Source: Patescibacteria group bacterium
GTDB taxonomy: Bacteria > Patescibacteriota > Microgenomatia > UBA8517
DNA: 64,000 bases
Assembly (NCBI GenBank): GCA_041742135.1
Contig: JBGSJG010000001.1
Location: 131,151 to 195,150 of the forward strand
Reading direction: 5' to 3'
The notes beneath the pieces are model-generated. The model was not told the origin of the DNA, searched no databases, and was given only the letters and a program-made list of their open reading frames with translations. Made by a program: the position numbers and the translations under genes. Positions within the stretch are counted from its first letter, which is position 1. Every line of letters begins with the position of its first letter. This document shows positions 39,096 to 61,009 of this stretch, one piece after another.

Positions 39096-39251
39096 CTTGT
39101 GCAAAAGCGTAAACACTTGTCCACGTTTCCACACGAAATACTATATAAGAAACAAATTGTAAACAAAAATTGGCGAGCCTAGCTTGAAGCTGATATTCCC
39201 CAATCCACATTACTACTACTGCTACTACTATTTAAGTAATGTATAATCCTA
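39096..39251. promoter_or_regulatory. dnaA-dnaN intergenic region, a putative oriC segment with degenerate DnaA boxes and an AT-rich (TAC)n tract (candidate DNA unwinding element)
   Basis: GGTGGATAA at 39087-39095, TTGTCCACG at 39117-39125, TTTCCACAC at 39126-39134, AATCCACAT at 39202-39210, and tactactactgctactacta at 39211-39230. Confidence 0.55.
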
Positions 39252-44287: not shown

Positions 44288-45018
44288 TTTTTAGTATCTT
44301 TCTCAACCTCTAGTATTACAGGTTCTTTCTTTTCTTTAACTGCCTCGGCTGGCGGGTTATATACGTTATAATACAACTCTGTCACTTGCTCGCTACTTAG
44401 GTGGCGAAGGCGTAGTCCCAAACGTGCAGCCTGGCGAATCAAATGATCGCGTTTAGGAAAAAGTGCAATCTTTGCTTTTTTGACCACAAATTCTTTTGTG
44501 TAAGGAAGTGCCGCGCTTCTTTTAGACAACATCTTAAAAGATTGAGAAAGCCCAAGCTCAAGCGGCGAGAAGGGAATAACCAAAAAGAATCGCTTGCCCA
44601 AGACGTTTCTTTTTTTGGTAGTTTCGATGACGAAATTGTAATAACTATCCATAAGGAATTTCAGCTTGGGGCTCTGAATTTGCTTTGCTGACTCCTTTAA
44701 GTATTCCAAATACTGGGTAATGTCCTTTCTTTGTGTACGGATGACAATTTGAATCGAAAAGGAAAGACTGTTAATAAGCGCGGCATATGCCGCCACGACC
44801 GCTTCTTGCTCGTTATCGCTTAAGAGACCAAAGTTAAGCGAAGTTGACTCAAGAACAACAGCCGCCCCGCCATCTTTGTATAAAACAACCCCGTCAACAA
44901 TATCTGCAATAGGAAGATGAGCTTGAGTGGTAGTCACAAGCGGCCTGTTTGGTGCATTAAAAATTGGAACTTTTGAAAAAACGTTTTTTACAGGTGATAT
45001 TTTTGGCATATTAAACAC
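44284..45018 (-). CDS. VirB4 N-terminal-domain protein, a separate ORF translationally coupled (ATGA overlap) to the ATPase ORF
   Basis: LPIADIVDGVVLYKDGGAAVVLESTSLNFGLLSDNEQEAVVAAYAALINSLSFSIQIVIRTQRKD matches the start of Gram-positive VirB4/PrgJ/TcpF-type proteins. Its stop TGA overlaps the next ATG. Confidence 0.6.
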   Translation of the reverse strand: MFNMPKISPVKNVFSKVPIFNAPNRPLVTTTQAHLPIADIVDGVVLYKDGGAAVVLESTSLNFGLLSDNEQEAVVAAYAALINSLSFSIQIVIRTQRKDITQYLEYLKESAKQIQSPKLKFLMDSYYNFVIETTKKRNVLGKRFFLVIPFSPLELGLSQSFKMLSKRSAALPYTKEFVVKKAKIALFPKRDHLIRQAARLGLRLRHLSSEQVTELYYNVYNPPAEAVKEKKEPVILEVEKDTKK

Positions 45019-46027
45019 TCCAAACCGCGCGGTAAGGCGCGGCAGAATCGGGTAAAGCGTCTTTGGATTTTATCGCAATTGGCATTATTAGCTCCCCAGT
45101 GGTCCTAAAACTTAAAGGCTCAAAGTTTAAACCTTCCTTTTCAATTGCGATTTTGTATTCACCGTTAGGAAGTGGAGTGACGATCATAAAATGCCCAGCT
45201 TTGTTGGTTTTGAGAGCTCGAACAGGGCGACCGTCTGTGTCTGTAATTTCAAGTATTGCTCCTTCAACAATTTTCCCAACTGAATCCATCACTTGCCCAA
45301 CAACCGTGTTTGGCATAGTAGGAGGAGAAGGTGGTGCTGCCTCTGGTGAAAAGTCTGCGTTTTGAGTTTGTGGAGTCGTGCTTTGGGTAAGTGGCGCGGT
45401 AACCACTGAGGTTGTGACTGGTGTTTGTGTAGGAGGCTGGTTAAAGCCGGCAACCGGCACTTGAACAGAGGGAGCAGTTGGAACAACAAGAGGTTGTTTT
45501 TGCTCACTAGGGGCAATCGGTGCCACTGGGGTTACTGGTGGCGGCGGGGTTTCGGCTACAGCAGGAGAGCCCGCGGTATGCTTACCTCCAAGCATATGGG
45601 AAAGCTTGGAAAGAAAATCTTTCTCCTGTGCTTCTAGGTTGCGGGTGGCGTTATCTGCAGGCAAACTTTGAGGCACTTCTTCAACAGGAGTGTCTGCGCT
45701 AGCTTGTGTGTCAGCCGCAAAATACTGATCCGGGCTTCCTGTTTTTTTCCAAACAAACAAAGTTGGTGCATAGATTGACCTAAAAAATGCAACCAACCAC
45801 TGCTCAAGAGGCCGGTCTTGGATGGGCAAAAAGGCAAATGCTGCTCCAGCGACTACAGAAATCACAATCATCGGCCACTTAAAAAAGCCGGGCAAAGGGA
45901 GCGAATAAATTATAAGGCCCAAAACCGCGCCAACAGCAAGTTGGAAAAACTGCTTCAAAGTCATGTCTCCCACAAGCCGGAATTGGTAAGAGCTTATTTG
46001 TTGAGGTACAGGGTGTTGTTCAAACAT
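45011..46027 (-). CDS. VirB3-like two-TM protein fused to a Pro/Thr-rich linker and a C-terminal carboxypeptidase-regulatory-like beta-sandwich domain
   Basis: The N-terminus has 2 TM helices and …DRPLEQWLVAFFRSIYAPTLFVW…, a VirB3/TrbD-like layout directly upstream of VirB4. The linker is PPPVTPVAPIAPS…. The C-terminus (…DTDGRPVRALKTNKAGHFMIVTPLPNGEYKIAIEKEGLNFEP…) is CarbopepD_reg/transthyretin-like. Confidence 0.5.
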   Translation of the reverse strand: MFEQHPVPQQISSYQFRLVGDMTLKQFFQLAVGAVLGLIIYSLPLPGFFKWPMIVISVVAGAAFAFLPIQDRPLEQWLVAFFRSIYAPTLFVWKKTGSPDQYFAADTQASADTPVEEVPQSLPADNATRNLEAQEKDFLSKLSHMLGGKHTAGSPAVAETPPPPVTPVAPIAPSEQKQPLVVPTAPSVQVPVAGFNQPPTQTPVTTSVVTAPLTQSTTPQTQNADFSPEAAPPSPPTMPNTVVGQVMDSVGKIVEGAILEITDTDGRPVRALKTNKAGHFMIVTPLPNGEYKIAIEKEGLNFEPLSFRTTGELIMPIAIKSKDALPDSAAPYRAVWSV

Positions 46028-46135
46028 TTTTTAAGATTTTAAAAATCTAGTATTCTACTATATTCATCTTACCTTGTGAAAGGTTCCTTTCAAGTAGAGG
46101 GATATTTTCACAAAAAATGAGGTTTGTGGTAAAAT

Positions 46136-48568
46136 TTGGCCATGACAACTGAACATGGTGATGATCCGATGTCTCCTAGGCCGGAGGAATCTGAATTTGA
46201 AGCAAGAAGACTTACTGGGGAGAGAGGGTCTATTTATCGAGTGGAACTGTCGCGTTTTCCTGAACTTCTCGATCCAAGGGCTGTGGTGATACAAGGTAGG
46301 GAATTTATCGGGCAGATGGTAGACACCTTTTACGAAACAGGGGAGACCGTGAGTCCATATGTCGTTCAGGACACAAAACGTAGGACCAGAGAGAAGCCGG
46401 AATTATATCGTGACATTATGGAGACAGGCGCTTATTCTTTTACTGACGAAGAGCTGAGAGCTGGCCTAGTAGAGCGCCCACAGCAAACACTATGGATGCA
46501 AGTTCCTGATGCCTATATTGCAAGATTGTCTTTACCTGCTGGTGATCCCCAAAAAGTAGACATTGTTGACGATGGAACAAAGAAATATTGGTTAGTCGAT
46601 GGTCAACGTATGCCCTTTGCAGACAACGGTGAGCTTATGAGGCGAACAAAAGGCGAGAAGGCTGAGTCGAATCGATTTTATGTTGGTGTTGAGTCGCGAG
46701 GTGTTAGCAAAGAAGATGCTCGCAGGAATCGCGAGGTGTTAGCACATTCAATTGAAGGTGTTGGTGTAATTCTTGAAGCTTGGGATAATTTAATACAAAA
46801 AACTCACGAACAAGACCTTTTTGCTGATAGTGACGAAAATTACGTTAAACAGAAATTTTTAAGGATTGGCAAGGTAATAATGAGGGCACGGTATTACGCT
46901 GAAATCTTTAGAGCCCCAGAGACCCGAGAGGGTCTTGCGCCTGCTGGTGCTAAGCTTGAGCAAGCGGTTCTTGCTTGGCAGGATTTGCTTCAAAATAGAG
47001 CGGTTGTTGAAATTGAAATCCCCAATCCTAATAAACCAGAGGAAACTATTAAGGCAAAACGAGTCATGCCAAACGCTCACGCTTATGCCAAAAACTGGGG
47101 AATGCGTGAACTAAACACCGAATATGTTCAAAGTCGTGTTGCTCAGCAGTTTGCTGGTGAGCGAGCCCCTGAAGGAGTGGACCATCAACACTTCCGCCAT
47201 GTGCGAGATAAGGACAATAGGAGAATTGCACGGCAAGCGGCGATTTTGGTGGACCATTTTGATTTAGATGCTGCTTATCCTTTTGACCTAGTATGGGAGA
47301 GAGACGCTTCAGGTAAGATGCGAATAACGAGTGTTGTTGAGGAGGTTGCCTATGTTGACTCTGCAAAACTTACACACCCTACTGCGCGAAGGGTCAAAGA
47401 GCGTTTCGGGGATGTGTTGGTTGTTTCAGGTATTCATGATCGGAGGAACGCGGAGAGCAGGCGGGACCACCCAAGAGCTTCTGGGTCACCCGTAACTCTT
47501 TATACACTTCCCGAATTGTCGAGTGATTTTTTGAATGTCACCTCAGTGGAAGTGGTTGCTTTTAATAAGGGCGACCTTGAAAAACGGAAAACAAATCGCG
47601 AGCAACAAGTTAGAAGAAAAGTTATTAAAGTAACCATAGATCAAAGAGCTTTTGGTGCAAAAGATCCCAAAGAAGACAAAAGAGTTTTTTATGGGACTTC
47701 TGACTCTCGGCGTTGGAGTTATGTTAGAAAAGCGAAAGAGGCAGGAAAGAAATCCGACGACGACGTTTGGGTATACGAGGTAACCGGTTTGGGAGACAAT
47801 CGAATTTGGGATGAAGTGCAGGCGGTAGTTAAAGTGGATGGTGAGACAACAGCGTTTGCAAGGGAAGACATTCTTGCGATTACACCAGTCGACAGCAAAG
47901 GAAAAACTGCAAGAGAACTTATGGCTGATGGGGTAGAGAAACTCGAGGTTGCCATGGGCACAACCACAAATGCGACTGAAATTCCAAAAGGTCTTTTGGA
48001 ATTCTATGCTTGGGCTGGAATTTACGGCGAGTTTACAAGGGAGGATTTCGAAAGACAGTTTGCTGAGTATACAGACAAGGACCCTGCGAAATTAAGAAGC
48101 ATTAGTAAGCAGCTTGGCGTGGCAGTTAATCAACTTGCTAACACACACCAACTATCGCGCGATACTGTAGCTAAATTAGAAGAATACCTGAGAATTTCGT
48201 TAATGGCGGGTTTAGCTGCTGCAATTATAGTTGGTAAAGACGTTAAAACAGGCACTCGATCTGAGGAGCAACCTACTCTGATTCCTTTAGAGGCTCGAGG
48301 TAAAGATAACATATTTATACCACTAAAGAGAGCTATGCTAAAAGCGGAGTTTGTTAAAAGAAAAGAAGGCAAGCTTGGAAACGAACCAGAATGGGCAGAC
48401 AAAGACGAAGAGGGACTTTTTGATTTTATTGTTAACAGCCAAAACTTGGGGCCGATGAGCCCGTGGGACTTGGCAGAAAACGGTAGACGTTTTTTTACTG
48501 ACGCACAACTTGAAGAGCTACGACCTTTGTACAGTATTCTCTTTTTGCCTGGCAGCACAAGGGAATAA
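46136..48568 (+). CDS. Hypothetical 810-aa soluble protein (no TM, no Walker motifs), divergent from the T4SS-like operon
   Basis: Long ORF, rich in Arg/Glu/Asp. No recognisable catalytic motif. GC appears higher than in the neighbouring genes. Confidence 0.5.
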   Translation: MAMTTEHGDDPMSPRPEESEFEARRLTGERGSIYRVELSRFPELLDPRAVVIQGREFIGQMVDTFYETGETVSPYVVQDTKRRTREKPELYRDIMETGAYSFTDEELRAGLVERPQQTLWMQVPDAYIARLSLPAGDPQKVDIVDDGTKKYWLVDGQRMPFADNGELMRRTKGEKAESNRFYVGVESRGVSKEDARRNREVLAHSIEGVGVILEAWDNLIQKTHEQDLFADSDENYVKQKFLRIGKVIMRARYYAEIFRAPETREGLAPAGAKLEQAVLAWQDLLQNRAVVEIEIPNPNKPEETIKAKRVMPNAHAYAKNWGMRELNTEYVQSRVAQQFAGERAPEGVDHQHFRHVRDKDNRRIARQAAILVDHFDLDAAYPFDLVWERDASGKMRITSVVEEVAYVDSAKLTHPTARRVKERFGDVLVVSGIHDRRNAESRRDHPRASGSPVTLYTLPELSSDFLNVTSVEVVAFNKGDLEKRKTNREQQVRRKVIKVTIDQRAFGAKDPKEDKRVFYGTSDSRRWSYVRKAKEAGKKSDDDVWVYEVTGLGDNRIWDEVQAVVKVDGETTAFAREDILAITPVDSKGKTARELMADGVEKLEVAMGTTTNATEIPKGLLEFYAWAGIYGEFTREDFERQFAEYTDKDPAKLRSISKQLGVAVNQLANTHQLSRDTVAKLEEYLRISLMAGLAAAIIVGKDVKTGTRSEEQPTLIPLEARGKDNIFIPLKRAMLKAEFVKRKEGKLGNEPEWADKDEEGLFDFIVNSQNLGPMSPWDLAENGRRFFTDAQLEELRPLYSILFLPGSTRE

Positions 48569-48637: not shown

Positions 48638-50272
48638 CTAAAGTGTTTTTGGTGTTCGATCTCCTCTACGGCCAATGGCCTTAACAACCCCTGTACTACT
48701 TTCTCTTAAGACTTGAGCACCCATACCTTCACCGGTTGACAGCAGAGTTCTGCCGACAGCATTTCTGAGCCACCCTTCACCTGATTGCATCCCTGCTCCT
48801 CTGAGTGCCAGTCCGTAGCCAATACCACTCTTTGCACCACCTGCGGCAGCCCCAATCGCCATTCCAGCGAGTCCTGCTCCAATCATACCTGAACGTTCTC
48901 TAGACATTTGCCCTGATATTATCAAGGATTTAATGTTATTAGCAAGACCTGGAGCCATCAGAAGCAGTGTTGAGCCAATAAATATTGCAAGCAGAGTAAC
49001 ATCTATACCACTAAAGCCGGGGAAGCTGATTTGCCCTGAGTTGACCAAAGGCTCGACACCATACGGATTTCCAGCGACAGTGTTTTCTAGAAGTCCACCA
49101 GATCCGCCCCCCATACCAAAAAGTAAAATATGGGCGAACATTACAGCAACTGAAATAGTTACGAATATAGATGCATGCCCAACAAGAGATCGAAGCATTT
49201 GAGTAAACATATTCCCACTTGGCGAGGCGACATATCCTAGTGCAGCGAAAGGCAAAGCAATAACATGGAGGATAATCATCACATATGTTCTTAGAAATAT
49301 CCAAAATATGCGAATGATGGCCAAAATAATCAATAGAAGCATGACCACCAACACTAGAATGCCAGCCACTATCCCGAGCACCCACCCAACCACTGGAAAC
49401 CCTCCAAAACCGCTTTTAAGAACAATCCAAACAACTGCGAGACCAAAATTCAATAATCCTCCGCCAATATCGTTGATAAGATTAAATATTGCTACGGGAT
49501 CTAGGCTGGATACTCCAGATTGCGACACGACAGCAGCAATGACTCCTTGAATAACATAGGACATATCAATTACAAACCCTGCAATTGCGTAGGAAAAAGT
49601 AATTAAAATAAAACCAATAATTACTCGAGGAATAGCTGAGGTGACACTGACACTTACTTGTGGCGAGATTCTCGCTCTAAACATGACCATGAAGGCTAAA
49701 AGAATAACTGCCAACGCCATAAGCGCGTAAGCCGCATTTCTAGAGGCTGCCCAAAGTTTTAAGATTGGTGCTAATGACCCGAAACCAAATCCTGCCTGTT
49801 GAGCATATGCTGGCTGTATTCCAATATTGTCCATAATTCCAGCAACATACGAAACCCCAGAGACAGGCCTGGTGGTTATCATTAAGTCAGAAAGCCGTGC
49901 AAATTCCAGAAAACCAAGACTCTTGCGAGGGGAAAGGGCGGTATCGGGTGAAGATGCGTCTGCAGTTGTAACACAACCCACAAAGTCGTCAAGCGCTGGG
50001 TGTTGTGTAGCACACTCAGAAATGTCGTGCTCGATGGCAAAATTTATTAGCGAATAAATGACCCACCAAACTTGTGCATGTGTGTATCTTTCACCAAAAA
50101 TTTCATTGTCAGGGATCGCTGTGTTGTTAACTTTGTCATTAAATTGCTGAAAGGTAGGAGCCCACCATTCGGCCTGAGCAGAGACAGTAGAGGGTTTAAC
50201 TGCTCCTATGAGAAAGATGGACGACAGTAGTGCGGCGACTAAGAATTTCTTAAACATCGATGATAATATCAT
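48638..50272 (-). CDS. VirB6/TrbL-like polytopic membrane protein
   Basis: A signal peptide, an about 130-aa extracytoplasmic domain, then at least 7 TM helices and a Gly-rich C-terminal tail. The architecture and its position next to VirB4/pilins fit VirB6. Confidence 0.5.
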   Translation of the reverse strand: MILSSMFKKFLVAALLSSIFLIGAVKPSTVSAQAEWWAPTFQQFNDKVNNTAIPDNEIFGERYTHAQVWWVIYSLINFAIEHDISECATQHPALDDFVGCVTTADASSPDTALSPRKSLGFLEFARLSDLMITTRPVSGVSYVAGIMDNIGIQPAYAQQAGFGFGSLAPILKLWAASRNAAYALMALAVILLAFMVMFRARISPQVSVSVTSAIPRVIIGFILITFSYAIAGFVIDMSYVIQGVIAAVVSQSGVSSLDPVAIFNLINDIGGGLLNFGLAVVWIVLKSGFGGFPVVGWVLGIVAGILVLVVMLLLIILAIIRIFWIFLRTYVMIILHVIALPFAALGYVASPSGNMFTQMLRSLVGHASIFVTISVAVMFAHILLFGMGGGSGGLLENTVAGNPYGVEPLVNSGQISFPGFSGIDVTLLAIFIGSTLLLMAPGLANNIKSLIISGQMSRERSGMIGAGLAGMAIGAAAGGAKSGIGYGLALRGAGMQSGEGWLRNAVGRTLLSTGEGMGAQVLRESSTGVVKAIGRRGDRTPKTL

Positions 50273-50300: not shown

Positions 50301-53300
50301 TTAAGGTTGGCAAGTTAGTGACTTAGGGCTAACCGGCATTGGACAAGCGGAGAAATAATCCCAAGCTGTAGATGCTATCGCATCAAAGTATGTTGGTGAA
50401 GCAAAGCTCGTGCAACTTGATCCTCCTCGGAAGAAAATCTCCATGGCAATTTCCATGTCAGACCAACCTCTTGCTCTCAGTGTTGTAAAGCAGTTTGGGT
50501 AAGTTGATTGATAGGGGGTTTGGCTGTTCCAGATTTGTAAAAATCGAGTGTATTGAGCGTTGAAATTTTCAGGCGGGTATGCGGCATTGTTGATTCCAAA
50601 GTCCTGCCACAGTAGTGGCGAAGCTGTGTAGTTGCTGCAAGCGCTTTCGTGAGCCCAGATGGCTAACGCAAACGTTGGGTGAACGCCTAACGCGACCGCT
50701 CGGGAAACCACGTCGTTGTAACATCTTCGACCGTTTGACACCCCTCGGGAGTCCCATTGTTCACAGATTCTGATTGCATTATCTTTAAATGAACCAAGGT
50801 ATTGTGCAGGTAACGCAGTGTCTGGAATATCTGTCCTACAATTTGCTTCTGAGGCAATAGGTGGCGCAGGTTCGTCTGGTAGCTCGTCTTCCGAGAAGGT
50901 TTCATTTCCACAAAGCCCCAGAGGTCGAAGTGCACACTGAATACCTTCTAGGAAATAATCCTGCACACTTCCGATGTGAGGGAAATAAAACTCAGCTGCA
51001 CTACCGGGGCGGTTATTGCCAGACAGAGCTGAAACAGAGGCGGACGATCCATTTTCGACACTGATACTATTGGCTAAATACCCAGAGGTTGTTTCAGCCG
51101 GGATGTCTTTTATTGTTGAAAGAGGAGCGTCGGCGCTAATTCTAGGAAAAATACGTCTAAACACTGACCACGATCCCGCTACGAGCCGTTGCCAGACACT
51201 GTCTGCTTCTGGTGTATTTGCTGACATCGCAAGTGGAATGGTAATAGTTTTTTGGCAAGTGGTTGGGTATGTCATAGCTGCTTCTCTACAACCAACATTG
51301 TCAAATACTCCAGCGGGGGGGAGTGGAAGGACACATCGGCCAAGTCCTGGGGTACAGCTTGGGTCAGGATTCCAGGTACCCCCTATTCCGCAAGCTGCGG
51401 GCGACTCGCAATATCCAATTAACCAACAAGCGTTGTAGAGGTTTTGGTCTACTGAAGGTGTGAAATCACAGGTAAAGTCAGCGGTATAGCTTAGTGTGGC
51501 TTGGAGTGGATTTTCTCCAGCTACACCCTCTCGTTCAAGTTCGCCGTACAAATCATCTCCAGCATTTGATCTTGTGTCTTGGAATTCGCAACCCGGCATG
51601 CGTTGTGGGAGAGTGATGTCATCAGTCTTAGGGCTGTCAAGTGCACCAGTATATTCACCTGGAATGAATGTGCGCTGTGTAACCTCTGCCAATTCTTTCG
51701 TTTCTTCCATGTGAGCAAAATATAGATTTCTGCTGGCGCTGCCTGTTGGTGAATCACTTCCTTCTTGAGTTACAGTAAAATCTGTAATAGTTACCCCTTC
51801 GCCAGAAGGTAAGCCTATCGGGCTAAAAGAGGCCATGCCTATACGATCTTCTGTGGAAGAATATGGTACATATCCCAGAGCTTCTGGGCTTGAGAATGTT
51901 GTTGCCCCCATAGTTTTTAGAAATGTGTTAGCGAGCACCCCAGTCAGCCGGTTGTAGGTATTGCTTTGGCTGTAACACGCTTCGGGCGAATCGACAGAGC
52001 CGCACTCCACAATTTGATCATGTCTTTGGGTGCCAACATTATATCCTTGCTGAAACCTAAGGCCGTCAAATTTGTTTTCGTAGTAAGGAATAAAGCCAAA
52101 ATACCAACCTGCTATGTATCTGTCACCACTTTGAACTCGTTGGGGGAGAAGTTTTTTGATCGGGCCAGACATCGAAAGGAGCAGGTCTTGGTCGCTGGGA
52201 AAGCTAAAAAAACGCTCTTCAGCTCTTTGCACTACACCATTTAAGTACCAACTGGCATACCCCGCCATACGGTCTTTGTAGGTGAGTGTCGCGTTGGGAC
52301 CAGTTGCGTTGGGAACCAGTTGAGTATTTCCCATTATAGGCAACTGGGCTCTACTCAAATCGATTTCGGCATTTAAGTTACTATCTACGATAAACCTACA
52401 AGTTTGCGTCTCACCCGCGTCCCCGGTGCAGCTACCGGGGACTGCTTGCCCTTGGTTAACCTCAAGCGTTTCAATTACCGTAAAATCATTACCACACTGA
52501 TTAACGCCGCTGGCGGTTTTGTTGCACGGGTTTGCTGGGTATGGGCGAAGAGAGTGGTATTCTGGGTCGGTTACCGTGTTGCAATCCCAATTTTCGATTT
52601 CGTATGGCGTTGTAGTAATACAAGCAGGAGTTGCCCATAGCTCTGTGGCTGGTTCGTTAGGACCAGCAATTACCCACAGGTCGCCCGATATTTTTGAATT
52701 AACGTCTGCTAGAAAGTTGGCGTACTCCACTGGGTTTGCGAAATCACAAGTGTTTCCCGCACACACCCTAAGAATTGGTTTTTTACCCAACTCGTGAGCT
52801 CTGTTTGCAAAGTCTGCAACCGTTTGCACAGCTCCTCGGGAATAAGCAATTTCAAGTATCCAGTTAACATTGCCACTGTAGCCAACCGCAGTATTCACAA
52901 ATGTTCCAGGAGTGACCTCCATCGCCGAGTTAACACCTGCCTTGCCCGGATTGGTGCTGGTAATAGTGTCAAACTCCGCCTTATCAAGTTGGTGGCGAGT
53001 AAATTCTTGATTTCCGCCGAGGGCATTAAAATAGTTAATTGATGAAACCTTCGGGTCGTTTGCAGTGATTTGGTGTTGAGAAGCGGCAAGGCTGATCGAC
53101 CCAGGATTGGCATCATAATTAAAGTCACCATATTCTGTGAAGAATGTCGGGCCTCCAGTAAAGCGAGTTTTCCAAGATACACCCCGACCATCGGGTATGT
53201 CCGCTCGGGAATACCAGTCGTACGATGTAAAACTAAAACCACCACCCGGGACGTGTGAGTAAGAGTTACCCGCAAAGCCGTCAAGCCTACTGAAATCACC

Positions 53301-53585
53301 CCTTTCGCCGGGTTGAGTAGTCATCAAATCAAATATTTGCCATTCTACAGAGCTTGTTAGATTAAATGCGGGAGAGAGAAGCTTAATGTGGCTTAAATTT
53401 CCAGCACGAGTAGTAAGGGCGTTCATGTATATTGCCAAGTCGCGCGCAATGCACTGCACGTCAGGCTCGCCTGTAGTTTGAGCTTGTATTGCTGGGGGGG
53501 CAGAAGCTCTAGGCAACAAAACAACAACTAATGCAGTCAAAACAATTGTTGAACACAAAAGAAGCTTGGTGGCTAAATGCTTCAT
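50301..53585 (-). CDS. Large (1094 aa) Cys-rich secreted protein with a glycoside-hydrolase-like (NEP motif) region and a C-terminal lytic-transglycosylase-like (…HES…) region
   Basis: Signal peptide MKHLATKLLLCSTIVLTALVVVLLP. The segment …KKPILRVCAGNTCDF…WVIAGPNEP resembles a GH5/GH26-type strand-4 NEP. The C-terminal …FALAIWAHESACSNYTASP resembles an SLT catalytic Glu-Ser region. More than 30 Cys. Confidence 0.45.
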   Translation of the reverse strand: MKHLATKLLLCSTIVLTALVVVLLPRASAPPAIQAQTTGEPDVQCIARDLAIYMNALTTRAGNLSHIKLLSPAFNLTSSVEWQIFDLMTTQPGERGDFSRLDGFAGNSYSHVPGGGFSFTSYDWYSRADIPDGRGVSWKTRFTGGPTFFTEYGDFNYDANPGSISLAASQHQITANDPKVSSINYFNALGGNQEFTRHQLDKAEFDTITSTNPGKAGVNSAMEVTPGTFVNTAVGYSGNVNWILEIAYSRGAVQTVADFANRAHELGKKPILRVCAGNTCDFANPVEYANFLADVNSKISGDLWVIAGPNEPATELWATPACITTTPYEIENWDCNTVTDPEYHSLRPYPANPCNKTASGVNQCGNDFTVIETLEVNQGQAVPGSCTGDAGETQTCRFIVDSNLNAEIDLSRAQLPIMGNTQLVPNATGPNATLTYKDRMAGYASWYLNGVVQRAEERFFSFPSDQDLLLSMSGPIKKLLPQRVQSGDRYIAGWYFGFIPYYENKFDGLRFQQGYNVGTQRHDQIVECGSVDSPEACYSQSNTYNRLTGVLANTFLKTMGATTFSSPEALGYVPYSSTEDRIGMASFSPIGLPSGEGVTITDFTVTQEGSDSPTGSASRNLYFAHMEETKELAEVTQRTFIPGEYTGALDSPKTDDITLPQRMPGCEFQDTRSNAGDDLYGELEREGVAGENPLQATLSYTADFTCDFTPSVDQNLYNACWLIGYCESPAACGIGGTWNPDPSCTPGLGRCVLPLPPAGVFDNVGCREAAMTYPTTCQKTITIPLAMSANTPEADSVWQRLVAGSWSVFRRIFPRISADAPLSTIKDIPAETTSGYLANSISVENGSSASVSALSGNNRPGSAAEFYFPHIGSVQDYFLEGIQCALRPLGLCGNETFSEDELPDEPAPPIASEANCRTDIPDTALPAQYLGSFKDNAIRICEQWDSRGVSNGRRCYNDVVSRAVALGVHPTFALAIWAHESACSNYTASPLLWQDFGINNAAYPPENFNAQYTRFLQIWNSQTPYQSTYPNCFTTLRARGWSDMEIAMEIFFRGGSSCTSFASPTYFDAIASTAWDYFSACPMPVSPKSLTCQP

Positions 53586-53622: not shown

Positions 53623-53961
53623 TCAATTGTAGATGTCGAAGTTGAGAATTGCGGGTACACCAACAAAATTGGCAATTATTTGAACAATCAAAAACGCCAA
53701 AGCCAAAACTACTGTTCCCGCTATGGCATAAGTAATTGTGCTTTTGGCTCCCGCAACTTGCCTTGGGTCGCCACCTGAGAAAATAAAATAGAATCCTCCG
53801 ACAATAAGCATTACAAAAAGGATTATTCCACCAATTGGGAGTAGTGATGAAACAATTCTGCCAAAAACATCCGTGAGAGAGTAGAGTCCCGAAGCGCAAT
53901 TTTCACCGACAGCCCCAGGTGGGCACGGCGTGGGATCTTGCGCAAAAATAATTGATAGCAT
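53623..53961 (-). CDS. VirB2/TrbC-like pilin paralogue 1
   Basis: About 110 aa with two hydrophobic helices separated by the SGGDPRQ loop. Same design as the tandem array at 56.3-58.7 kb. Confidence 0.6.
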   Translation of the reverse strand: MLSIIFAQDPTPCPPGAVGENCASGLYSLTDVFGRIVSSLLPIGGIILFVMLIVGGFYFIFSGGDPRQVAGAKSTITYAIAGTVVLALAFLIVQIIANFVGVPAILNFDIYN

Positions 53962-54031: not shown

Positions 54032-54775
54032 GTGGTAAACATAAATATGGTTAAAAATAAGATTGATTTTCCGAACTACCCAGAGGTGAATAAAAAGAAC
54101 TTTAAGTCGTGGAACGATGACATGTTTCTGAAATACAACAACGAGCGCGTTTACAAGCACCCTAATTTGATAATTAGATATATTGAGAGGAAAAGAGTAG
54201 AAGCTTTAATACAATTTCTCGGTCGTATCAAAAGGTCAGACAAAATACTGGCTGCTGGTTGCGGGGAGGGATACATAGAAAAGAAGATTAATAAAGGAAA
54301 ACTCTTTTTGGTCGACATCTCGCCCCATGCAGTAGAGAGGGCCAAAAGGGGTCTGCACGATCTAAAAAATATTAAATATTTTGTCGCAGATCTTGAAAAG
54401 TTGCCCTTCCCTGATGGGTATTTTGATAAAATCGAATGCTCGGAGGTCATAGAACATGTTTTATCTCCAGAAAAGATGTTAATAGAATTCAAGCGAGTTT
54501 TGAAATCCGACGGAATTTTGGTGGTCAGCTTTCCCAACGAGCCTCTGATCAATTTTCTTAAAAGCGCTTTGTTAAAGATAGGCATACTCCATCTAGTTTT
54601 TCCAAACATTCCCGACAACATGCTGGAAGAGTGGCACTTAAGATCTATGGACTTAACAACTTTTAAGAATTTTACGAAGACTGATTGGAAAATCAAATCG
54701 TTCGCAGCCGCACCGAATAAACTGTTGCCGATAAGATACGTTGTATTGTGTGAGAAAAAAGTGACTCATTTTTGA
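54032..54775 (+). CDS. Class I SAM-dependent methyltransferase (Methyltransf_11-like)
   Basis: Motif I ILAAGCGEGY and post-I LFLVDIS, plus …YFDKIECSEVIEHV…. Confidence 0.75.
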   Translation: MVNINMVKNKIDFPNYPEVNKKNFKSWNDDMFLKYNNERVYKHPNLIIRYIERKRVEALIQFLGRIKRSDKILAAGCGEGYIEKKINKGKLFLVDISPHAVERAKRGLHDLKNIKYFVADLEKLPFPDGYFDKIECSEVIEHVLSPEKMLIEFKRVLKSDGILVVSFPNEPLINFLKSALLKIGILHLVFPNIPDNMLEEWHLRSMDLTTFKNFTKTDWKIKSFAAAPNKLLPIRYVVLCEKKVTHF

Positions 54776-56271
54776 TAGATTATTGACATCTCGTCTTCAA
54801 AGACCACTTCCCACCCTATCTTTTCAACTTCGCTTTGTAGAGATATTTGTTTTGGGCAATAAGTTAAGCCGAGAGAGTAGGCCAACCTGTCAAATTTCTC
54901 TGCGAAAACGCCCTTTGTCGTCTTTGTTGTGTTAGTGATTTTTGAGACCAAAATTGTATCGGTGTTGTATTTTGTGATGGTTTCATAAAAATCTTTGTAG
55001 CCACAGTTTATGTCTAAGTACTCGAGAAACGCATGGTCACTTTCTCCTTCTGGGGCAATCCATGAAAAGCCAGACATTCTTCCGTCAACAAAAAACTTTT
55101 TATTAGGCATTTGCCATATTAAATAGCCACCTAGGCCGTAATCAGCAAAAATGTTAGTAGAATCATTGTTTAAGGAAAGAAATGTTACGGCTCTGTAAGG
55201 GTAAAAGCCGTCTTCGTTGAGGTGCCGCCATGTGCGTGATGAGGCAAACACCGCTAAAGCCCAAACTAAAACACTTACTAGAACTAGTATTTTATAGAAA
55301 ATATTTAATCTCTCTGAGCCCTTAAGAAATTTTTTTGCCCGCTGCTCTGTGTGGTTTAGGTATTTAACAAGAAAGGGTGCCATTAGAAGTGCAGATAGTG
55401 GTGCGTATCGCCCACTGTAAACGCCTGCAAATATGCTGCCCGCTACAACTACTACTTCCCAAAGCCTTATCTTATTTTTGTTAACGAATATAAAAGTGGC
55501 TGTGAAGGCTGAAATCGCAAAAAAACCCACGTCAAAAGTAAACAATGCCGAGGCCCATTCGCTTACTGATTGTCTGAAAAGCTCACCTTGACTCATTTGT
55601 TTAACGACCTCTTCCCAGTTTCTAATGCCATATGGGTTTGCTAGGGTAGCAGCTATGCTCATCAGAAGAACTAGAAAGTCTGAAGATATAATCCGCCGTT
55701 TCTGGAAAGATTTGAACAGAATTAACAAGGCAGATAGCCCAATACCCAAAACATAGCTTCCGTGAAGATTTGTCCACACAAACATCAAGAGAGGAAGAAA
55801 CAATCGAAGTTTGTTCCAATTCGTACGATCGTAAAAAATTTTAACTAAAATAGCCAGCAGAAACCAATTAAAAACTTGCGGGCGTACTCCAACTCTTAGT
55901 GTCATACTGGAAATGACCAATAACCACGGAAGAAGAAAATACTTAGTTTTTCCGTAGACTGAAATTACAATTGAAGCAGAAGTCAGTGCAATGATGACAT
56001 GCAGGAGCGCAAGGGTATTGTACCCAAAAAGATTGTAAACGTGATAATAGAGAAAATTCGAAAGCCACTCATAGTCAATGTACGGGTATGTCTGCATTGT
56101 ATACGAAAATGGGTTTCCAGTGGGGAAGCCAACCCTCGCAATTATTTCGCCTACACGATAATGCCAACCAAAATCAGGGTCAATGAAGGTCCTTGTTCCC
56201 AGAAACAATAACGTACCCACTATAACAAAAGCTAGGCGAAAAACGTATCGTGGTTTAATGTGGCTTAACAT
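54766..56271 (-). CDS. Polytopic membrane protein (at least 11 TM helices), a possible GT-C-type glycosyltransferase/oligosaccharyltransferase
   Basis: Many TM helices in the first 350 aa, then a soluble C-terminal domain. Family not recognised. Confidence 0.4.
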   Translation of the reverse strand: MLSHIKPRYVFRLAFVIVGTLLFLGTRTFIDPDFGWHYRVGEIIARVGFPTGNPFSYTMQTYPYIDYEWLSNFLYYHVYNLFGYNTLALLHVIIALTSASIVISVYGKTKYFLLPWLLVISSMTLRVGVRPQVFNWFLLAILVKIFYDRTNWNKLRLFLPLLMFVWTNLHGSYVLGIGLSALLILFKSFQKRRIISSDFLVLLMSIAATLANPYGIRNWEEVVKQMSQGELFRQSVSEWASALFTFDVGFFAISAFTATFIFVNKNKIRLWEVVVVAGSIFAGVYSGRYAPLSALLMAPFLVKYLNHTEQRAKKFLKGSERLNIFYKILVLVSVLVWALAVFASSRTWRHLNEDGFYPYRAVTFLSLNNDSTNIFADYGLGGYLIWQMPNKKFFVDGRMSGFSWIAPEGESDHAFLEYLDINCGYKDFYETITKYNTDTILVSKITNTTKTTKGVFAEKFDRLAYSLGLTYCPKQISLQSEVEKIGWEVVFEDEMSIIYQK

Positions 56272-56357: not shown

Positions 56358-56708
56358 TTACGGAGTAACAACGCTACCAATATTAAAATTCTGAATAATA
56401 TTGATTCCAAAAATTGTGCTAATGAGTTGGGCGAGAGCCCAAGCTGAAAACACTACAACCAAACCGATAAGCGCGCTTGTAACCTGATTCCTAGCTGATT
56501 CAGTCTGGCCTTTATCTCCGCCGGACATAATCCACTTTATTCCTCCGAGAATAAGCATAAAGAAGAATACCAATCCTGCTATAACCAAAATACTGTTGAT
56601 TGCCCAAGAAATCATACCACCAACGGTGATATTGGCAATGGGGCCAAAATTAGTTGGCGCGGTTAAATTTATTGTGTCTTGTGCAAATACTGTTGATAAA
56701 AATGGCAT
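56358..56708 (-). CDS. VirB2/TrbC-like pilin paralogue 2
   Basis: Two TM helices flanking SGGDKGQ. RBS AAGGAGG upstream. Confidence 0.6.
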   Translation of the reverse strand: MPFLSTVFAQDTINLTAPTNFGPIANITVGGMISWAINSILVIAGLVFFFMLILGGIKWIMSGGDKGQTESARNQVTSALIGLVVVFSAWALAQLISTIFGINIIQNFNIGSVVTP

Positions 56709-56732
56709 AATTTAAATTCACCTCCTTTTATT

Positions 56733-56771
56733 GGTTTGCTTTATAAAAAAATAATATTTGTTAAGCAAACC
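56733..56771 (-). promoter_or_regulatory. Inverted repeat (9-bp stem, about 20-nt AT loop) immediately 5' of the RBS of pilin paralogue 2
   Basis: GGTTTGCTT…AAGCAAACC. No U-tract follows on the transcribed strand. Confidence 0.4.
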
Positions 56772-56873
56772 TTAAAATTCAATATACAAAATCTTTCTAT
56801 TATAATGGCAAAAAAGTATTTGTCAAATTTTCAAGAAAGACTATCTATTTATGAACTAAGATAGGGGAGCATG

Positions 56874-57263
56874 TCAAGGGGTACCAACTGTTGCTAGCGT
56901 TGGTATGTCAATAAGAAGAAGATTTATTCCAAAGACATTCTCAATAAGGGTAAAAACTGCCCAAGCTGCAAAAAGTATTACAAGTCCAATAATTGCGTTA
57001 AGAAGCTTCTGTCTTGCTTCTTCTAGTTTGTTTTTGTCGCCTCCCGAGCCGATCCATGCTACTCCGCCAGTCAGGAACTGGAAGACAAAATAAAGCGAAC
57101 CAACAATTAGAATAATTGTTAACATGACGCTAATTAGCGCGCTTAAATACCCAACTCCTCCTGTTGCACCAGGTCCTAATGTAATGAATCGATTCAAATC
57201 ACCAATCGCTGGGTTTTTTATGTTTTCCCCTGGTATTGGTGCGGCCAGTATTGTGCTGATCAT
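56874..57263 (-). CDS. VirB2/TrbC-like pilin paralogue 3
   Basis: Two TM helices, loop GSGGDKNK. Confidence 0.6.
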   Translation of the reverse strand: MISTILAAPIPGENIKNPAIGDLNRFITLGPGATGGVGYLSALISVMLTIILIVGSLYFVFQFLTGGVAWIGSGGDKNKLEEARQKLLNAIIGLVILFAAWAVFTLIENVFGINLLLIDIPTLATVGTP

Positions 57264-57264
57264 G

Positions 57265-57624
57265 TTAAGTTAAACTGAAAATAAGTAAAGGAATATTTAA
57301 GAAAGGAATTCCAAGAATGTCGCCTACAATGTCGATTAAAAATATTGCTGATATAACAACAACAACCCCAATCAAACTCGTAGTAAGCTTTCCCTTTGCT
57401 GCAGCAAGGGCGTTTTTGTCCCCACCAGAGCTTATTATTTGAATTGCTGCCAAGAAGAATTGGATAACAAACCATATAAACGCAATGATCGTGATAACAC
57501 CCAGTGCAGTAGATATTACATCACTAAGCTTGTACACGGAACCTGCTCCTGGATTTTGGCCAAGTGTTCCAGGTAGCGTGAAACCTCCAGATGGAGCTAC
57601 GGGTATGTCTGCTAGTCTTGCCAT
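57265..57624 (-). CDS. VirB2/TrbC-like pilin paralogue 4
   Basis: Two TM helices, loop SSGGDKNA. Confidence 0.6.
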   Translation of the reverse strand: MARLADIPVAPSGGFTLPGTLGQNPGAGSVYKLSDVISTALGVITIIAFIWFVIQFFLAAIQIISSGGDKNALAAAKGKLTTSLIGVVVVISAIFLIDIVGDILGIPFLNIPLLIFSLT

Positions 57625-57972
57625 TTAAGGTGTTGGAATAGATGGGTTGATCAAGAAAGTTGCATCACCAAATATTATTTGGCCAAATATTGCAGCTAGA
57701 ACCAAAGACCCCCCAGCAATCAAAAGCCCAATTACGCTTTGGTATATTTTTGCCCAAGCTGTTTGAACCATTTTAGGGTCATCCCCAGCAGCCAAGAAAC
57801 TGTATCCCGCGAGGATGAAATTAAACAGGGCGTATATGCCCGCAATAACTATCAAAACGTTAAATGCTAACTGAAGCACTGTACCCAAAGCCCCACCTTC
57901 CACAGTCCCAAAATTTTGAGTTGGTTCTGGCTGATTAATGGTACCCCAATTAACTTGTAAAAATTGAAACAT
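57625..57972 (-). CDS. VirB2/TrbC-like pilin paralogue 5
   Basis: Two TM helices, loop AAGDDPKM. Confidence 0.6.
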   Translation of the reverse strand: MFQFLQVNWGTINQPEPTQNFGTVEGGALGTVLQLAFNVLIVIAGIYALFNFILAGYSFLAAGDDPKMVQTAWAKIYQSVIGLLIAGGSLVLAAIFGQIIFGDATFLINPSIPTP

Positions 57973-57975
57973 TTT

Positions 57976-58281
57976 TTAAAAAGGATCGGGAGCAGTCAAG
58001 AAATTCGTCCCACTCCATATCTCTATGATACGTATAACCCAGTAAGCTGTAAAGACCACGACAAATCCTACCAACGCCCAAGTGATAGCCTGCTTGCCGT
58101 TTGCAGCTCCTTTTGCGTCGCCAGAACCAGCGGAAGCGATCATTGAAACTCCACCTAATATAAACAAAAGGACCATTATAATTCCGGAAACAACAATAGC
58201 GGCTGTTACTAAATTACCTATAAAATCACCCACAGAAACAGATCGTCCGAGAGGAGAATTGAAAGTACTGCCTAAATCCAT
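57976..58281 (-). CDS. VirB2/TrbC-like pilin paralogue 6
   Basis: Two TM helices, loop ASAGSGDAKG. Confidence 0.6.
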   Translation of the reverse strand: MDLGSTFNSPLGRSVSVGDFIGNLVTAAIVVSGIIMVLLFILGGVSMIASAGSGDAKGAANGKQAITWALVGFVVVFTAYWVIRIIEIWSGTNFLTAPDPF

Positions 58282-58322
58282 ATTTTGTATATCAAAACTG
58301 ACCCCCCTGCTTAGAGGGTTCT

Positions 58323-58664
58323 CTATAAAAAGGTCCCTCTAAACCCAGGGACACCCAAGAGCAATCCAACAATTTGAACAATCCAGTATGCGCAAAAAAT
58401 AATTACAAATCCTATTAGGGCTTGGGTAAGGCGTGCTTTGGCGCTCTCGAGCGCCTTAGGGTCGCCCTTTGAAGTCATCATTGAAAGGCCAGCGGAAATG
58501 AAAAAGAAAAGAAAGGCTGCTCCAGCGACAAAAAAAATAATATTCATTATCCCCCAATTGAAAAGCCGACCGATTGTGGCGGAACCTGCGAATCTGTAAT
58601 CACTCCCAAGGGCACCTTCAAGTTCTCCATAGTTCGGTAATTGTGCGAGTACAGCATTGAACAT
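58323..58664 (-). CDS. VirB2/TrbC-like pilin paralogue 7
   Basis: Two TM helices, loop TSKGDPKA. Confidence 0.6.
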   Translation of the reverse strand: MFNAVLAQLPNYGELEGALGSDYRFAGSATIGRLFNWGIMNIIFFVAGAAFLFFFISAGLSMMTSKGDPKALESAKARLTQALIGFVIIFCAYWIVQIVGLLLGVPGFRGTFL

Positions 58665-58688
58665 AGTTATATTTTACTATTTATCGTC

Positions 58689-60218
58689 TTAGCTAAACAA
58701 GCCTAAGATGTTTACTCCTACAAATCTTAGCAAAAAGACAGAGAGAACTATCATTAAGAGGCCTCCGATGGATGAAAAAAACAATGCTTTTGAGTTTTCC
58801 AGTTTTTTTGGATCTCCACTTGAAGTGGCAAACATGAAGCCCGCCACAGCAATCAAAAATAGGGCAATGCCTCCGCCCACTGACAATCCCCATTGGATGA
58901 AAAATCTTGTAGTGCTTTGGACTAACTGCAAGGGAATACAGCCGATGGCTGTGTCTATGCCAAGCTCAGTGCCGTCTGAGCACAAAGGATTATTCTGTGC
59001 TGGAACTCCACCTAGCTGTCTGCATAAACCAGAAGTAGGGCAACAAAAGAGCGCTCCGTCGATATCGACCGTGTCTCCTGCTCGATCGCACAGTATTCCT
59101 CCAGCGTTTTCGCAAAATACTTCAGTCGCTCCTTCTGGGGCTTGGATACACTGAGTCGACAGTGAGCAAGTGCCGCCGTTACAGTGTCCAGAAAGGCATT
59201 GGGAATCATCAGTGCATGATCCTCCGAGACCAATTTCTCCACCACCACACCAACAGTAAGTTAGGCCAGGTGTCGCTTGAACTTCCGGTGATCCTTCGTC
59301 GCAATAATATGCGCCACCATCATTCTGGCAGCATGATTGCCCGTATGAGCCGCACCCCGCTGTGTTCCCTGTGACACAACTGCCTCGTAGCCCCGCCGCA
59401 ATTGGTAGCCCAGTTGCACTTGTGGGGTGAATCCAGCACTGACGCAAGCCAAAAAGATCGCAGTCGCTTTGGATAATGTTGTCGAGGCAGGCTTCTTCTT
59501 CAAAAGTTAGGGTGCTACATTGGCCACCTCGATTGCTACAATTAAATACTACGGGCTCAGTTTCGTTTGGAGTGCAAACTCCTGGTAGATCTACATAGCT
59601 TCCAGGAAACTCAGCACACCATTCGGAGGCAGTCATTGACCCGTTGCATCTAAGATCTTCTGTACTACTGCAAGATTGGTTGTTTAAGCAACCATCACCT
59701 TCTAGTCCACCTGTGCGAGGTATGCATTTAAACTGGATGCACTGAAAGGCTGGGTCGCAAAGACTATCTATATCGCAAGCGTCACAAATCAAACCGCCTT
59801 CGACTGGGCTAACTCTTACAAAAACTGCGTCGATGGCTGTACAGAGATTTGTATAGAAAGGGCCTCCATCCCACCTGCGCAAAACGATCGTATTGCCTAT
59901 TGTTCCTTCAACAAAGAGGGAATTGCCATTGTTGTCATTTAATATGGACAACTGGACAGTTCCTCCTGTTTTGACAATATTACCTACGTCAATCCATCTG
60001 TCTGTTCGAGGAGACCAAATGTGATACCTCGTGTTGTCTGCGCTGGGATCATTGGGTGCGTTATTTATTGTGATGTTTACAGATTCGCCAGGATTTACTG
60101 TTGGCGTATTAACTACGATTGCACAACCGGATTGCGCTGAAGCGGTCCGGGGAGCAAGGGCCGCAGTATTTACAAAAAGGCCAAGTCCAAGTAGTAGCAA
60201 AACTAACTTTTTTTTCAT
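58689..60218 (-). CDS. Cys-rich secreted protein (509 aa) with a C-terminal pilin-like two-TM module
   Basis: Signal peptide MKKKLVLLLLGLGLFVNTAALA. The ectodomain has at least 45 Cys. The C-terminus is DTAIGCIP…GGIALFLIAVAGFMFATSSGDPKK…LLRFVGVNILGLFS, the same helix-loop-helix as the small pilins. Confidence 0.6.
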   Translation of the reverse strand: MKKKLVLLLLGLGLFVNTAALAPRTASAQSGCAIVVNTPTVNPGESVNITINNAPNDPSADNTRYHIWSPRTDRWIDVGNIVKTGGTVQLSILNDNNGNSLFVEGTIGNTIVLRRWDGGPFYTNLCTAIDAVFVRVSPVEGGLICDACDIDSLCDPAFQCIQFKCIPRTGGLEGDGCLNNQSCSSTEDLRCNGSMTASEWCAEFPGSYVDLPGVCTPNETEPVVFNCSNRGGQCSTLTFEEEACLDNIIQSDCDLFGLRQCWIHPTSATGLPIAAGLRGSCVTGNTAGCGSYGQSCCQNDGGAYYCDEGSPEVQATPGLTYCWCGGGEIGLGGSCTDDSQCLSGHCNGGTCSLSTQCIQAPEGATEVFCENAGGILCDRAGDTVDIDGALFCCPTSGLCRQLGGVPAQNNPLCSDGTELGIDTAIGCIPLQLVQSTTRFFIQWGLSVGGGIALFLIAVAGFMFATSSGDPKKLENSKALFFSSIGGLLMIVLSVFLLRFVGVNILGLFS

Positions 60219-60219
60219 G

Positions 60220-60990: not shown

Positions 60991-61009
60991 ACTTCAAGTT
61001 TAGCACAAG

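Follow-up and report, generated by a model that had tools for sequence, protein, structure and literature searches.

Among described proteins, those closest to the one reported here are the VirB1-type hydrolases of type IV secretion systems (T4SSs), such as PrgK of pCF10, TraG of pIP501 and CwlT of ICEBs1. Much of bacterial diversity belongs to the Patescibacteria; in the one genetically tractable patescibacterial species, the T4SS is essential for epibiotic growth (PMC10633639). A 2025 survey of patescibacterial T4SSs found VirB1 homologues only rarely linked to virB4, and raised the possibility that other glycosidases fill this role (PMC12102498). We analyzed a 64,000-nt stretch of DNA from a Patescibacteria group bacterium (GCA_041742135.1, contig JBGSJG010000001.1, positions 131,151 to 195,150; hereafter the window), in which a T4SS gene cluster includes an open reading frame (ORF) for a 1094-aa, Cys-rich protein. 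The family of this protein was not described in the 2025 survey (PMC12102498), and it may be a candidate for the wall-opening enzyme, i.e., the VirB1 role, that is missing from surveys of patescibacterial T4SSs. In our judgment it is probably an exported or anchored T4SS-associated wall glycanase, VirB1-like and equipped with an added glycosidase.

The ORF is real, with an ATG start, 1094 codons and a stop on the minus strand, a strand that an earlier sequence-only reading of the window had left unstated. That reading had likened the strings RVCAGNTCDF and WVIAGPNEP to the acid/base strand of clan GH-A glycoside hydrolases (GHs), and ALAIWAHESACSNYTASP to the catalytic region of lytic transglycosylases. 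All three strings are present, starting at aa 273, aa 304 (with N310-E311-P312) and aa 973 (giving H979-E980-S981), respectively. More than 30 Cys had been claimed, and we counted 31, of which C11 lies in the N-terminal hydrophobic helix and 30 in the mature part. A homology search with the protein recovered 108 relatives, and local-alignment mapping placed four domains after the signal helix, with the following approximate boundaries and notable features:

50301-53585, minus strand: whole ORF, 1094 aa, 31 Cys (ORF call and composition)
53496-53585, minus strand: N-terminal hydrophobic helix, aa 1-30 (hydropathy segment 3-30; helix 2-27 in the model)
52596-53468, minus strand: domain A, aa 40-330, a predicted GH-A-like, circularly permuted (beta/alpha)8 barrel (AlphaFold2 model, Foldseek, conservation)
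53121-53141, minus strand: FTEYGDF, aa 149-155, with E151, on the counterpart of canonical beta7, as candidate nucleophile (E151 in 69/69 and G153 in 68/69 homologues)
52650-52664, minus strand: GPNEP, aa 308-312, with N310-E311 as candidate acid/base after the strand equivalent to canonical beta4 (G308, N310 and E311 each in 69/69)
51996-52583, minus strand: domain B, aa 335-530, N-terminal half of the family core (local-alignment boundaries, invariant motifs)
50910-51878, minus strand: domain C, aa 570-892, C-terminal half of the family core (local-alignment boundaries, alignment, model)
50304-50852, minus strand: domain D, aa 912-1094, a predicted all-alpha, lysozyme-like sequence orphan (AlphaFold2 model, Foldseek, hhalign)
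50616-50669, minus strand: ALAIWAHESACSNYTASP, aa 973-990, a helix end with the candidate catalytic E980, and D995-F-G997 15 residues on (conservation, model)

Given the composition and size of the protein, NEP would be expected by chance about 0.2 times and HES about 0.05 times. Since the tripeptides alone are therefore not beyond chance, the evidence rests on conservation and fold. Conservation does exceed chance, with N310, E311 and E151 each found in 69 of 69 domain-A homologues and E980 in 77 of 77 domain-D homologues. (Residues are given in true numbering throughout; positions in the full-length alignment, A1, and in the full-length model are one lower, as both cover residues 2-1094.) A reading that takes NEP and HES for coincidences, and denies glycanase function to both domains, can appeal to these expected numbers and to the silence of curated sequence models: Pfam and NCBIfam gave no matches for the whole protein. 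Searches of PDB sequences returned nothing significant, either with phmmer or with profiles of the full-length protein (A1), domain D (A2) and canonical-order domain A (A3). We rejected this reading because of the invariance of the motifs across divergent homologues, and give it almost no credence. The motifs also fall at the positions expected for the predicted folds, a partner Glu (E151) lies at the GH-A offset, the fold searches returned the predicted enzyme classes disproportionately often, and SLT or SLT_3 domains occur at the equivalent position in family members.

In the full-length AlphaFold2 (AF2) model (mean predicted local distance difference test, pLDDT, 78.9), aa ~40-330 form eight strand/helix repeats, mostly with pLDDT >90, and the GPNEP motif directly follows the strand at 303-306. 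It had been proposed that a predicted structure be compared with glycosidase folds. Domain A is predicted as a (beta/alpha)8 barrel, and the best Foldseek match of the full model in the PDB was the GH26 mannanase 2bvt_A (E=1.8e-4, prob 0.99). All top matches were TIM barrels, with another GH26, a GH53 and a GH5 at E~1e-2 interspersed with unrelated barrels. Alongside the three acid/base and nucleophile residues, Y109, R273, W317 and G308 are invariant in the 69 homologues, and N75, N107, N219 and G153 are each found in 68. In the model, most of the invariant residues are found at the C-terminal strand ends or directly beyond them, where a TIM barrel has its catalytic face. E151 lies on the third strand and NEP comes after the eighth, and this cyclic offset, NEP plus three strands, is that of clan GH-A, with its acid/base on strand 4 and its nucleophile on strand 7. 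The assignment of NEP to a GH-A acid/base strand thus stands as far as invariance, position after a strand and a partner three strands away are concerned; it does not stand in strand number, as the motif follows the last strand and not strand 4. In canonical-order relatives (P0104, P0108 and P0236), NEP does follow strand 4 and the TExG Glu lies on strand 7.

Neither Pfam nor profiles searched against PDB sequences gave a detectable relation of domain A to an established GH family. With native, artificially re-permuted and naturally canonical domain-A sequences, Pfam returned only Glyco_hydro_cc, at E=0.058 and for one re-permuted sequence. The canonical-order profile had two non-significant matches among PDB sequences, one of them the GH2 beta-glucuronidase 7kgy (E=0.89). 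The 7kgy alignment, non-significant as it is, places the Y...FTEFG/E151 motif on the GH2 nucleophile region. As far as model and alignments can tell, domain A is of GH-A design, but outside any described family. It would act as a retaining glycosidase, with E311 as acid/base and E151 as nucleophile.

Hidden Markov models for the two half-barrels allowed us to trace the strand order through the family and showed that its rearrangements are genuine: three circular permutations of domain A occur within one family of 30-45% identity. Most members, including the protein in the window, carry canonical strands 5-8 followed by 1-4. The canonical 1-8 order is found in P0104, P0108 and several Dojkabacteria, Gottesmanbacteria and Amesbacteria loci, with the successive strand motifs GVNS, WxxEI, xxR, GPNEP, SPAFN, GNxY, TExG and YFNA. 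In a third group, strand 8 has moved to the front and is followed by 1-7. Examples of the permutations are P0104, P0108, P0030, P0032 and P0033, and loci L062-L083. Canonical-order domain A also occurs as proteins of ~450 aa with small Cys-rich flanks, including one (P0236) from the myxobacterium Haliangium ochraceum. For none of these proteins (P0229-P0241; locus L084) did Pfam return a significant match, and the genes around P0230 were uninformative.

Where the half-barrels are contiguous, two Cys lie seven residues apart (NCTPGDFQC, P0033), and their equivalents in proteins arranged like ours, C322 and C45, lie at the ends of the domain. Among homologues these two Cys co-vary, both being present in 48 and neither in ~18. 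Given this co-variation at the new termini, we infer, as seems natural, a disulfide that bridges them. In the comparison of Cys conservation that the sequence-only reading had advised, C275 and C280 co-varied as well. Judging from the sequences, domain A defines an undescribed and unannotated GH-A-like family in three circular permutations. It is a natural case in which to study how circularly permuted TIM barrels are tolerated and become fixed, and the Cys pair that would link the new termini is part of that case. We found no second copy of domain A or of domain D elsewhere in the 64-kb window.

Domain D is a sequence orphan. Pfam gave no match for 24 tails of the type found in our protein (query-type) even at E<=5, its profile matched no PDB sequence, and a collection of 5.8 billion proteins added only two new proteins, both unannotated. 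An AF2 model built on 24 sequences is all-alpha (pLDDT 85.5; predicted template modeling score, pTM, 0.81), with E980 at the end of helix 81-92 (model numbering), followed by a small beta-hairpin; the candidate catalytic Glu-Ser, E980-S981, is thus predicted at the C-terminal end of a helix. Across 77 homologous tails, E980 and G997 are invariant (77/77 each), and S984 (74/77), W977 (73/77) and D995 (72/77) are nearly so. In a Foldseek search of the PDB, 25 of 31 matches were lysozyme-fold peptidoglycan glycanases, none individually significant (best E=1.2) and with template modeling scores of only 0.3-0.54. They included g-type lysozymes, MltE, MltF, Slt35, SltB1, the GH73 enzymes Auto and Ecd09610, phiKZ gp144 and a type VI secretion system effector, presumably a muramidase. 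Named matches in BFVD were mostly LT_GEWL, transglycosylase, glucosaminidase and tape-measure entries, again not significant (best E=0.16); the scores of 0.3-0.54 span both lists. The comparison of the tail with SLT and lysozyme folds, as had been advised, yielded matches that were nearly all lysozymes or lytic transglycosylases, none of them individually significant.

Relatives provide a further link. The tail after domain C is interchangeable among family members, and in the same C-terminal slot other members carry Pfam SLT domains (among 62 short members, SLT_3 in 11, SLT in 9 and SLT_2 in 3); the tail of our own protein matches none of these three models. We found no mention of SLT_3 (PF18896) in the literature searched. 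About half of 199 tails form one supercluster, which includes the Pfam SLT_3 and SLT matches. When 77 query-type tails were aligned with 75 SLT-type tails by hhalign, Glu fell on Glu at the catalytic helix (32 columns, P=0.0027); this value was reached only after enlargement, and the small query-type (D1) alignments gave nothing significant against other tail types. We also considered a BLAST single-linkage connection between D1 and the D5 tails, which match the SLT-type tail profile in a jackhmmer search, and rejected it as domain chaining via P0135 and P0226, two members with two-domain C-terminal tails.

On balance, the proposal of a lytic transglycosylase-like domain around HES survives in part. 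An all-alpha domain, an invariant E980 at a helix end and SLT or SLT_3 in the corresponding slot of relatives support it, and it is weakened by the lack of a significant fold match. The narrower assignment to lytic transglycosylases needs qualifying: with D995 placed 15 residues beyond E980, at the start of the hairpin, a Glu/Asp hydrolase of the lysozyme type is no less good a fit. Hydrolytic lysozymes use Glu/Asp pairs, E35/D52 in the hen egg-white enzyme and E11/D20 in that of T4, whereas lytic transglycosylases are single-Glu enzymes. By this comparison, E980/D995 would seem to resemble the former more than the latter.

The emphasis of the sequence-only reading on two enzymes missed what the family conserves, for its core is neither enzyme-like domain but the two middle domains (aa 335-892). 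This core contains many invariant polar residues, including the domain-B motifs HSLRPYP, GNTxLVPN, YVSWYLNG, SGPLKKLLP and RHNQIV; domain C includes a Cys-rich insert at about aa 720-777, modeled with low confidence by AF2. Among 62 family members, domains B and C had no Pfam match. Searched against 1.84 billion representatives, B and C alone recovered 521 clusters (50% identity, E<=1e-3), 311 of them at E<=1e-30. Many family members consist of B, C and a tail only, without domain A. Some carry extra modules, either an SGNH/GDSL esterase (P0053, P0065, P0069, P0077 and P0101, with P0026 weak) or an NAGPA phosphodiester glycosidase (P0082 and P0108). The few relatives named in the sources, and the named genome records, are mostly Patescibacteria and mainly Ca. 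Woesebacteria. Many metagenome-assembled genome records with this patescibacterial T4SS locus (L004, L005, L008 and others) are titled 'uncultured Gammaproteobacteria' or 'Pseudomonadales', apparently placeholder or wrong labels.

The window is chromosomal patescibacterial (candidate phyla radiation, CPR) DNA of 43% G+C, with dnaA, dnaN, yidC, groEL and leuS. Within it, the 1094-aa gene is flanked by genes for a T4SS_pilin and a VirB6-like protein and is part of a monoderm-type T4SS cluster that adjoins dnaN:

41374-42372, minus strand: M23 peptidase of the T4SS cluster
42374-44287, minus strand: VirB4, T4SS core
44284-45018, minus strand: TrsD-like protein, T4SS core
45011-46027, minus strand: PrgI/VirB3-like protein, T4SS core
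46136-48568, plus strand: 810-aa protein with no family match, mid-cluster on the opposite strand
48638-50272, minus strand: 544-aa polytopic membrane protein, putatively VirB6-like, with ~8 hydrophobic segments; a homologue lies directly downstream in most related loci
53623-53961, minus strand: 112-aa T4SS pilin, VirB2-like (PF18895, E=1.6e-11); a pilin lies just upstream in most related loci
56358-61918, minus strand: pilin array of six small T4SS_pilin genes and three Cys-rich pilin fusions (Pfam scan)

The T4SS context claimed by the sequence-only reading proved real and conserved. The order pilin, family gene, VirB6-like gene and, a few kb on, PrgI-TrsD-VirB4 recurs in most of 83 related loci. 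We conclude that the family is a regular member of this T4SS cluster, encoded within it and conserved together with it. The reading had also named VirB6 as a neighbor in the same orientation; the next gene downstream indeed shares the orientation and the conserved position, and its hydrophobic segments are consistent with a VirB6-like protein, though no Pfam or NCBIfam model matches it. The layout of the cluster, near dnaA, with pilin arrays and without a relaxase, agrees with the 2025 description of patescibacterial T4SSs, for which an origin-proximal placement was reported (PMC12102498). Here the cluster abuts dnaN and dnaA (37716-40349, plus strand). We consider it reasonably probable that the protein is a fixed, multi-domain, glycan-cleaving accessory of the Woesebacteria-type T4SS of Patescibacteria.

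This same position, together with the conserved core, could instead suggest a structural or adhesive T4SS component, such as a VirB5-like pilus-associated protein or a Gram-positive surface adhesin, whose function would reside in B and C while the enzyme-like domains would be accessory or degenerate. B and C are the sole parts common to the whole family, domain A is missing from many members, and the place between pilin and VirB6-like genes is comparable to that of virB5 in the Agrobacterium virB operon. Moreover, the 2025 survey found no PrgB-type adhesin in Patescibacteria (PMC12102498). However, the invariant candidate catalytic residues in both enzyme-like domains argue against degenerate pseudo-enzymes, nearly all family members retain a lysozyme- or SLT-type tail, and Pfam shows no resemblance of B and C to any known adhesin or VirB5 family. 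We therefore regard a purely structural or adhesive role as improbable.

The Cys content sets the protein apart from its neighbors. VirB4, the TrsD-like and PrgI-like proteins and the 810-aa ORF contain no Cys, as against 30 in the mature 1094-aa protein. More broadly, the dichotomy is sharp, with 14-36 Cys in exported T4SS-linked proteins and none in the proteins encoded at 42374-48568. Going by its N-terminal helix and its Cys content, the 1094-aa protein is probably exported or membrane-anchored and stabilized by disulfides. Its helix at aa 1-30 would be either a Sec signal peptide or a membrane anchor. A lipoprotein was considered and rejected, as LLLC is not a canonical lipobox.

An export signal, 30 Cys, two domains with invariant acids and a position among T4SS genes together fit the VirB1/PrgK class. 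Under this VirB1-like interpretation, the protein would be exported by means of its N-terminal signal or anchor helix and retained at the cell surface beside the T4SS and its VirB2-like pilins. Domain D would use E980, probably with D995, to cut the glycan strands of peptidoglycan and so open the wall for a channel or pilus, in the manner of VirB1 or PrgK, whether in the wall of the producer, that of a host or both. Domain A, as a permuted retaining glycosidase of GH-A type, might cleave a second glycan, probably beta-linked, e.g., a polymer of a host envelope or capsule. Domains B and C would provide the family scaffold and, more speculatively, probably dock the protein to the T4SS or pilus. 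E980, D995, E151 and E311 are the candidate residues for function.

Several points weigh against this interpretation. Both enzyme-like domains went without a match among curated sequence models (Pfam, NCBIfam) and PDB sequences, and the GH26 match of domain A is only ~50-fold better than those to generic TIM barrels (enolase, PEP mutase, aldolases). The conserved B and C core, of no recognized family, may hold the main role of the protein. Directly downstream of virB4 (40346-42372, minus strand) lie the M23 peptidase and a 349-aa ORF with a single transmembrane segment and of no recognized family, the latter matched by neither the SLT-type nor the query-type tail profile. Southlakia has been reported to carry essential peptidase and lysozyme homologues at this position (PMC12102498), and the two genes in the window might already provide wall opening, as there. 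Finally, the data fit action on the wall of the producer and on that of a host alike. Overall, the sequence-only reading is partly supported: it is largely right on the GH-A-like barrel, the lysozyme-like tail and the T4SS context, but the links of both domains to known enzyme families are weak.

The question of whose wall is cut bears on a rival explanation, in which the protein is a host-directed weapon or feeding tool at the T4SS/pilus contact, its glycanases digesting envelope polymers and peptidoglycan of the host so that the epibiont can breach it or feed. The enzyme modules are highly modular and fast-evolving, with interchangeable tails, three barrel permutations and additional SGNH and NAGPA modules, and Cys-rich exported proteins beside a diversified pilin array form a pattern typical of host-interaction proteins. 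The separate M23 peptidase beside virB4 could take care of remodeling the producer's own wall, and patescibacterial T4SSs mostly lack relaxases and are thought to be repurposed (PMC12102498). Against this, the protein has a Sec-type N-terminus and its gene lies among structural T4SS genes, and the enzymology would be identical to that of the VirB1-like wall glycanase that we prefer. As an exclusive function we hold it to be possible but rather unlikely; within the VirB1-like interpretation, the variable enzyme modules (SGNH, NAGPA) and the separate M23 peptidase near virB4 lead us to lean somewhat toward a host-facing role.

A bolder and, to our minds, unlikely extension would make the family the 'drill head' of the patescibacterial T4SS. 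The protein would be associated with the surface or the pilus; its domains B and C would dock on the VirB2-like pilus and carry swappable glycanase cartridges matched to host envelopes, i.e., the permuted GH-A-like barrel, the lysozyme- or SLT-type tails and the SGNH and NAGPA modules. If this were true, the enzyme repertoire would help to set host range, and the T4SS would be an organelle for breaching host walls, not a conjugation machine.

Other genes of the cluster deserve brief mention. The 810-aa ORF (46136-48568, plus strand) encodes no transmembrane segment and no Cys and has no Pfam or NCBIfam match; at its place, locus L003 holds a 772-aa ORF of similar size and orientation. The pilin genes are interrupted by an S-adenosylmethionine (SAM)-dependent methyltransferase (54032-54775, plus strand) and by a polytopic membrane protein of 501 aa that matched no family (54766-56271, minus strand). 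Beyond these lie the six small pilin genes (56358-58664, minus strand), in an array headed by the three pilin fusions (58689-61918, minus strand). Each fusion has an N-terminal hydrophobic segment, a Cys-rich N-terminal domain and then a C-terminal T4SS_pilin domain, and their sizes are 509 aa with 36 Cys, 256 aa with 14 Cys and 302 aa with 22 Cys.

Taken as modeled, the 1094-aa protein would be a T4SS-associated wall hydrolase of a new and very large architecture, with two sequence-orphan enzyme-like domains. It changes no concept; its use lies with workers on patescibacterial T4SSs, as a candidate for the missing VirB1, and with those who study protein evolution. Like PrgK, TraG and CwlT, it is encoded within a monoderm, MPF-FATA-like T4SS cluster, and it shares with them an N-terminal signal or anchor, a (here predicted) lysozyme- or SLT-like domain and a multi-domain build far larger than the VirB1 of diderms. 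Unlike them, it has no CHAP, NlpC/P60 or LytM domain, and instead combines a GH-A-like barrel with a novel core of ~560 aa; it is also Cys-rich, and its lysozyme-like domain falls outside the Pfam SLT, SLT_2 and SLT_3 models. Its gene adjoins VirB2-like pilins, whereas Gram-positive conjugation systems have none (PMC12102498).

At the level of single domains, the comparison is similarly mixed. In its model, domain D resembles family 1 lytic transglycosylases of GH23 and goose-type lysozyme (SLT, PF01464; SLT_3, PF18896) in being all-alpha, with Glu-Ser at a helix end and then a beta-hairpin. It differs from them in matching no sequence model, in a nearly invariant Asp (D995) 15 residues after the Glu and in its low fold-match scores (0.3-0.54), and the GH23 motifs GLMQ and AYNxG are not recognizable in it. 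Domain A shares with clan GH-A (GH26, GH5, GH53, GH2 and GH128) the predicted barrel, Asn-Glu after one strand, the T-E-x-G Glu three strands later and, next to the nucleophile strand, N-x-Y on the one that precedes it and an aromatic residue on the one that follows. Unlike clan GH-A, it matches no Pfam glycoside-hydrolase model, its strands 5-8 precede 1-4, and C45 and C322 stand at its new termini. The GH70 glucansucrases, permuted relative to GH13 in clan GH-H, are another natural example of a glycosidase whose (beta/alpha)8 barrel is circularly permuted. Domain A differs from GH70 in clan, catalytic machinery and biology, and in that several permutation points coexist within one close family.

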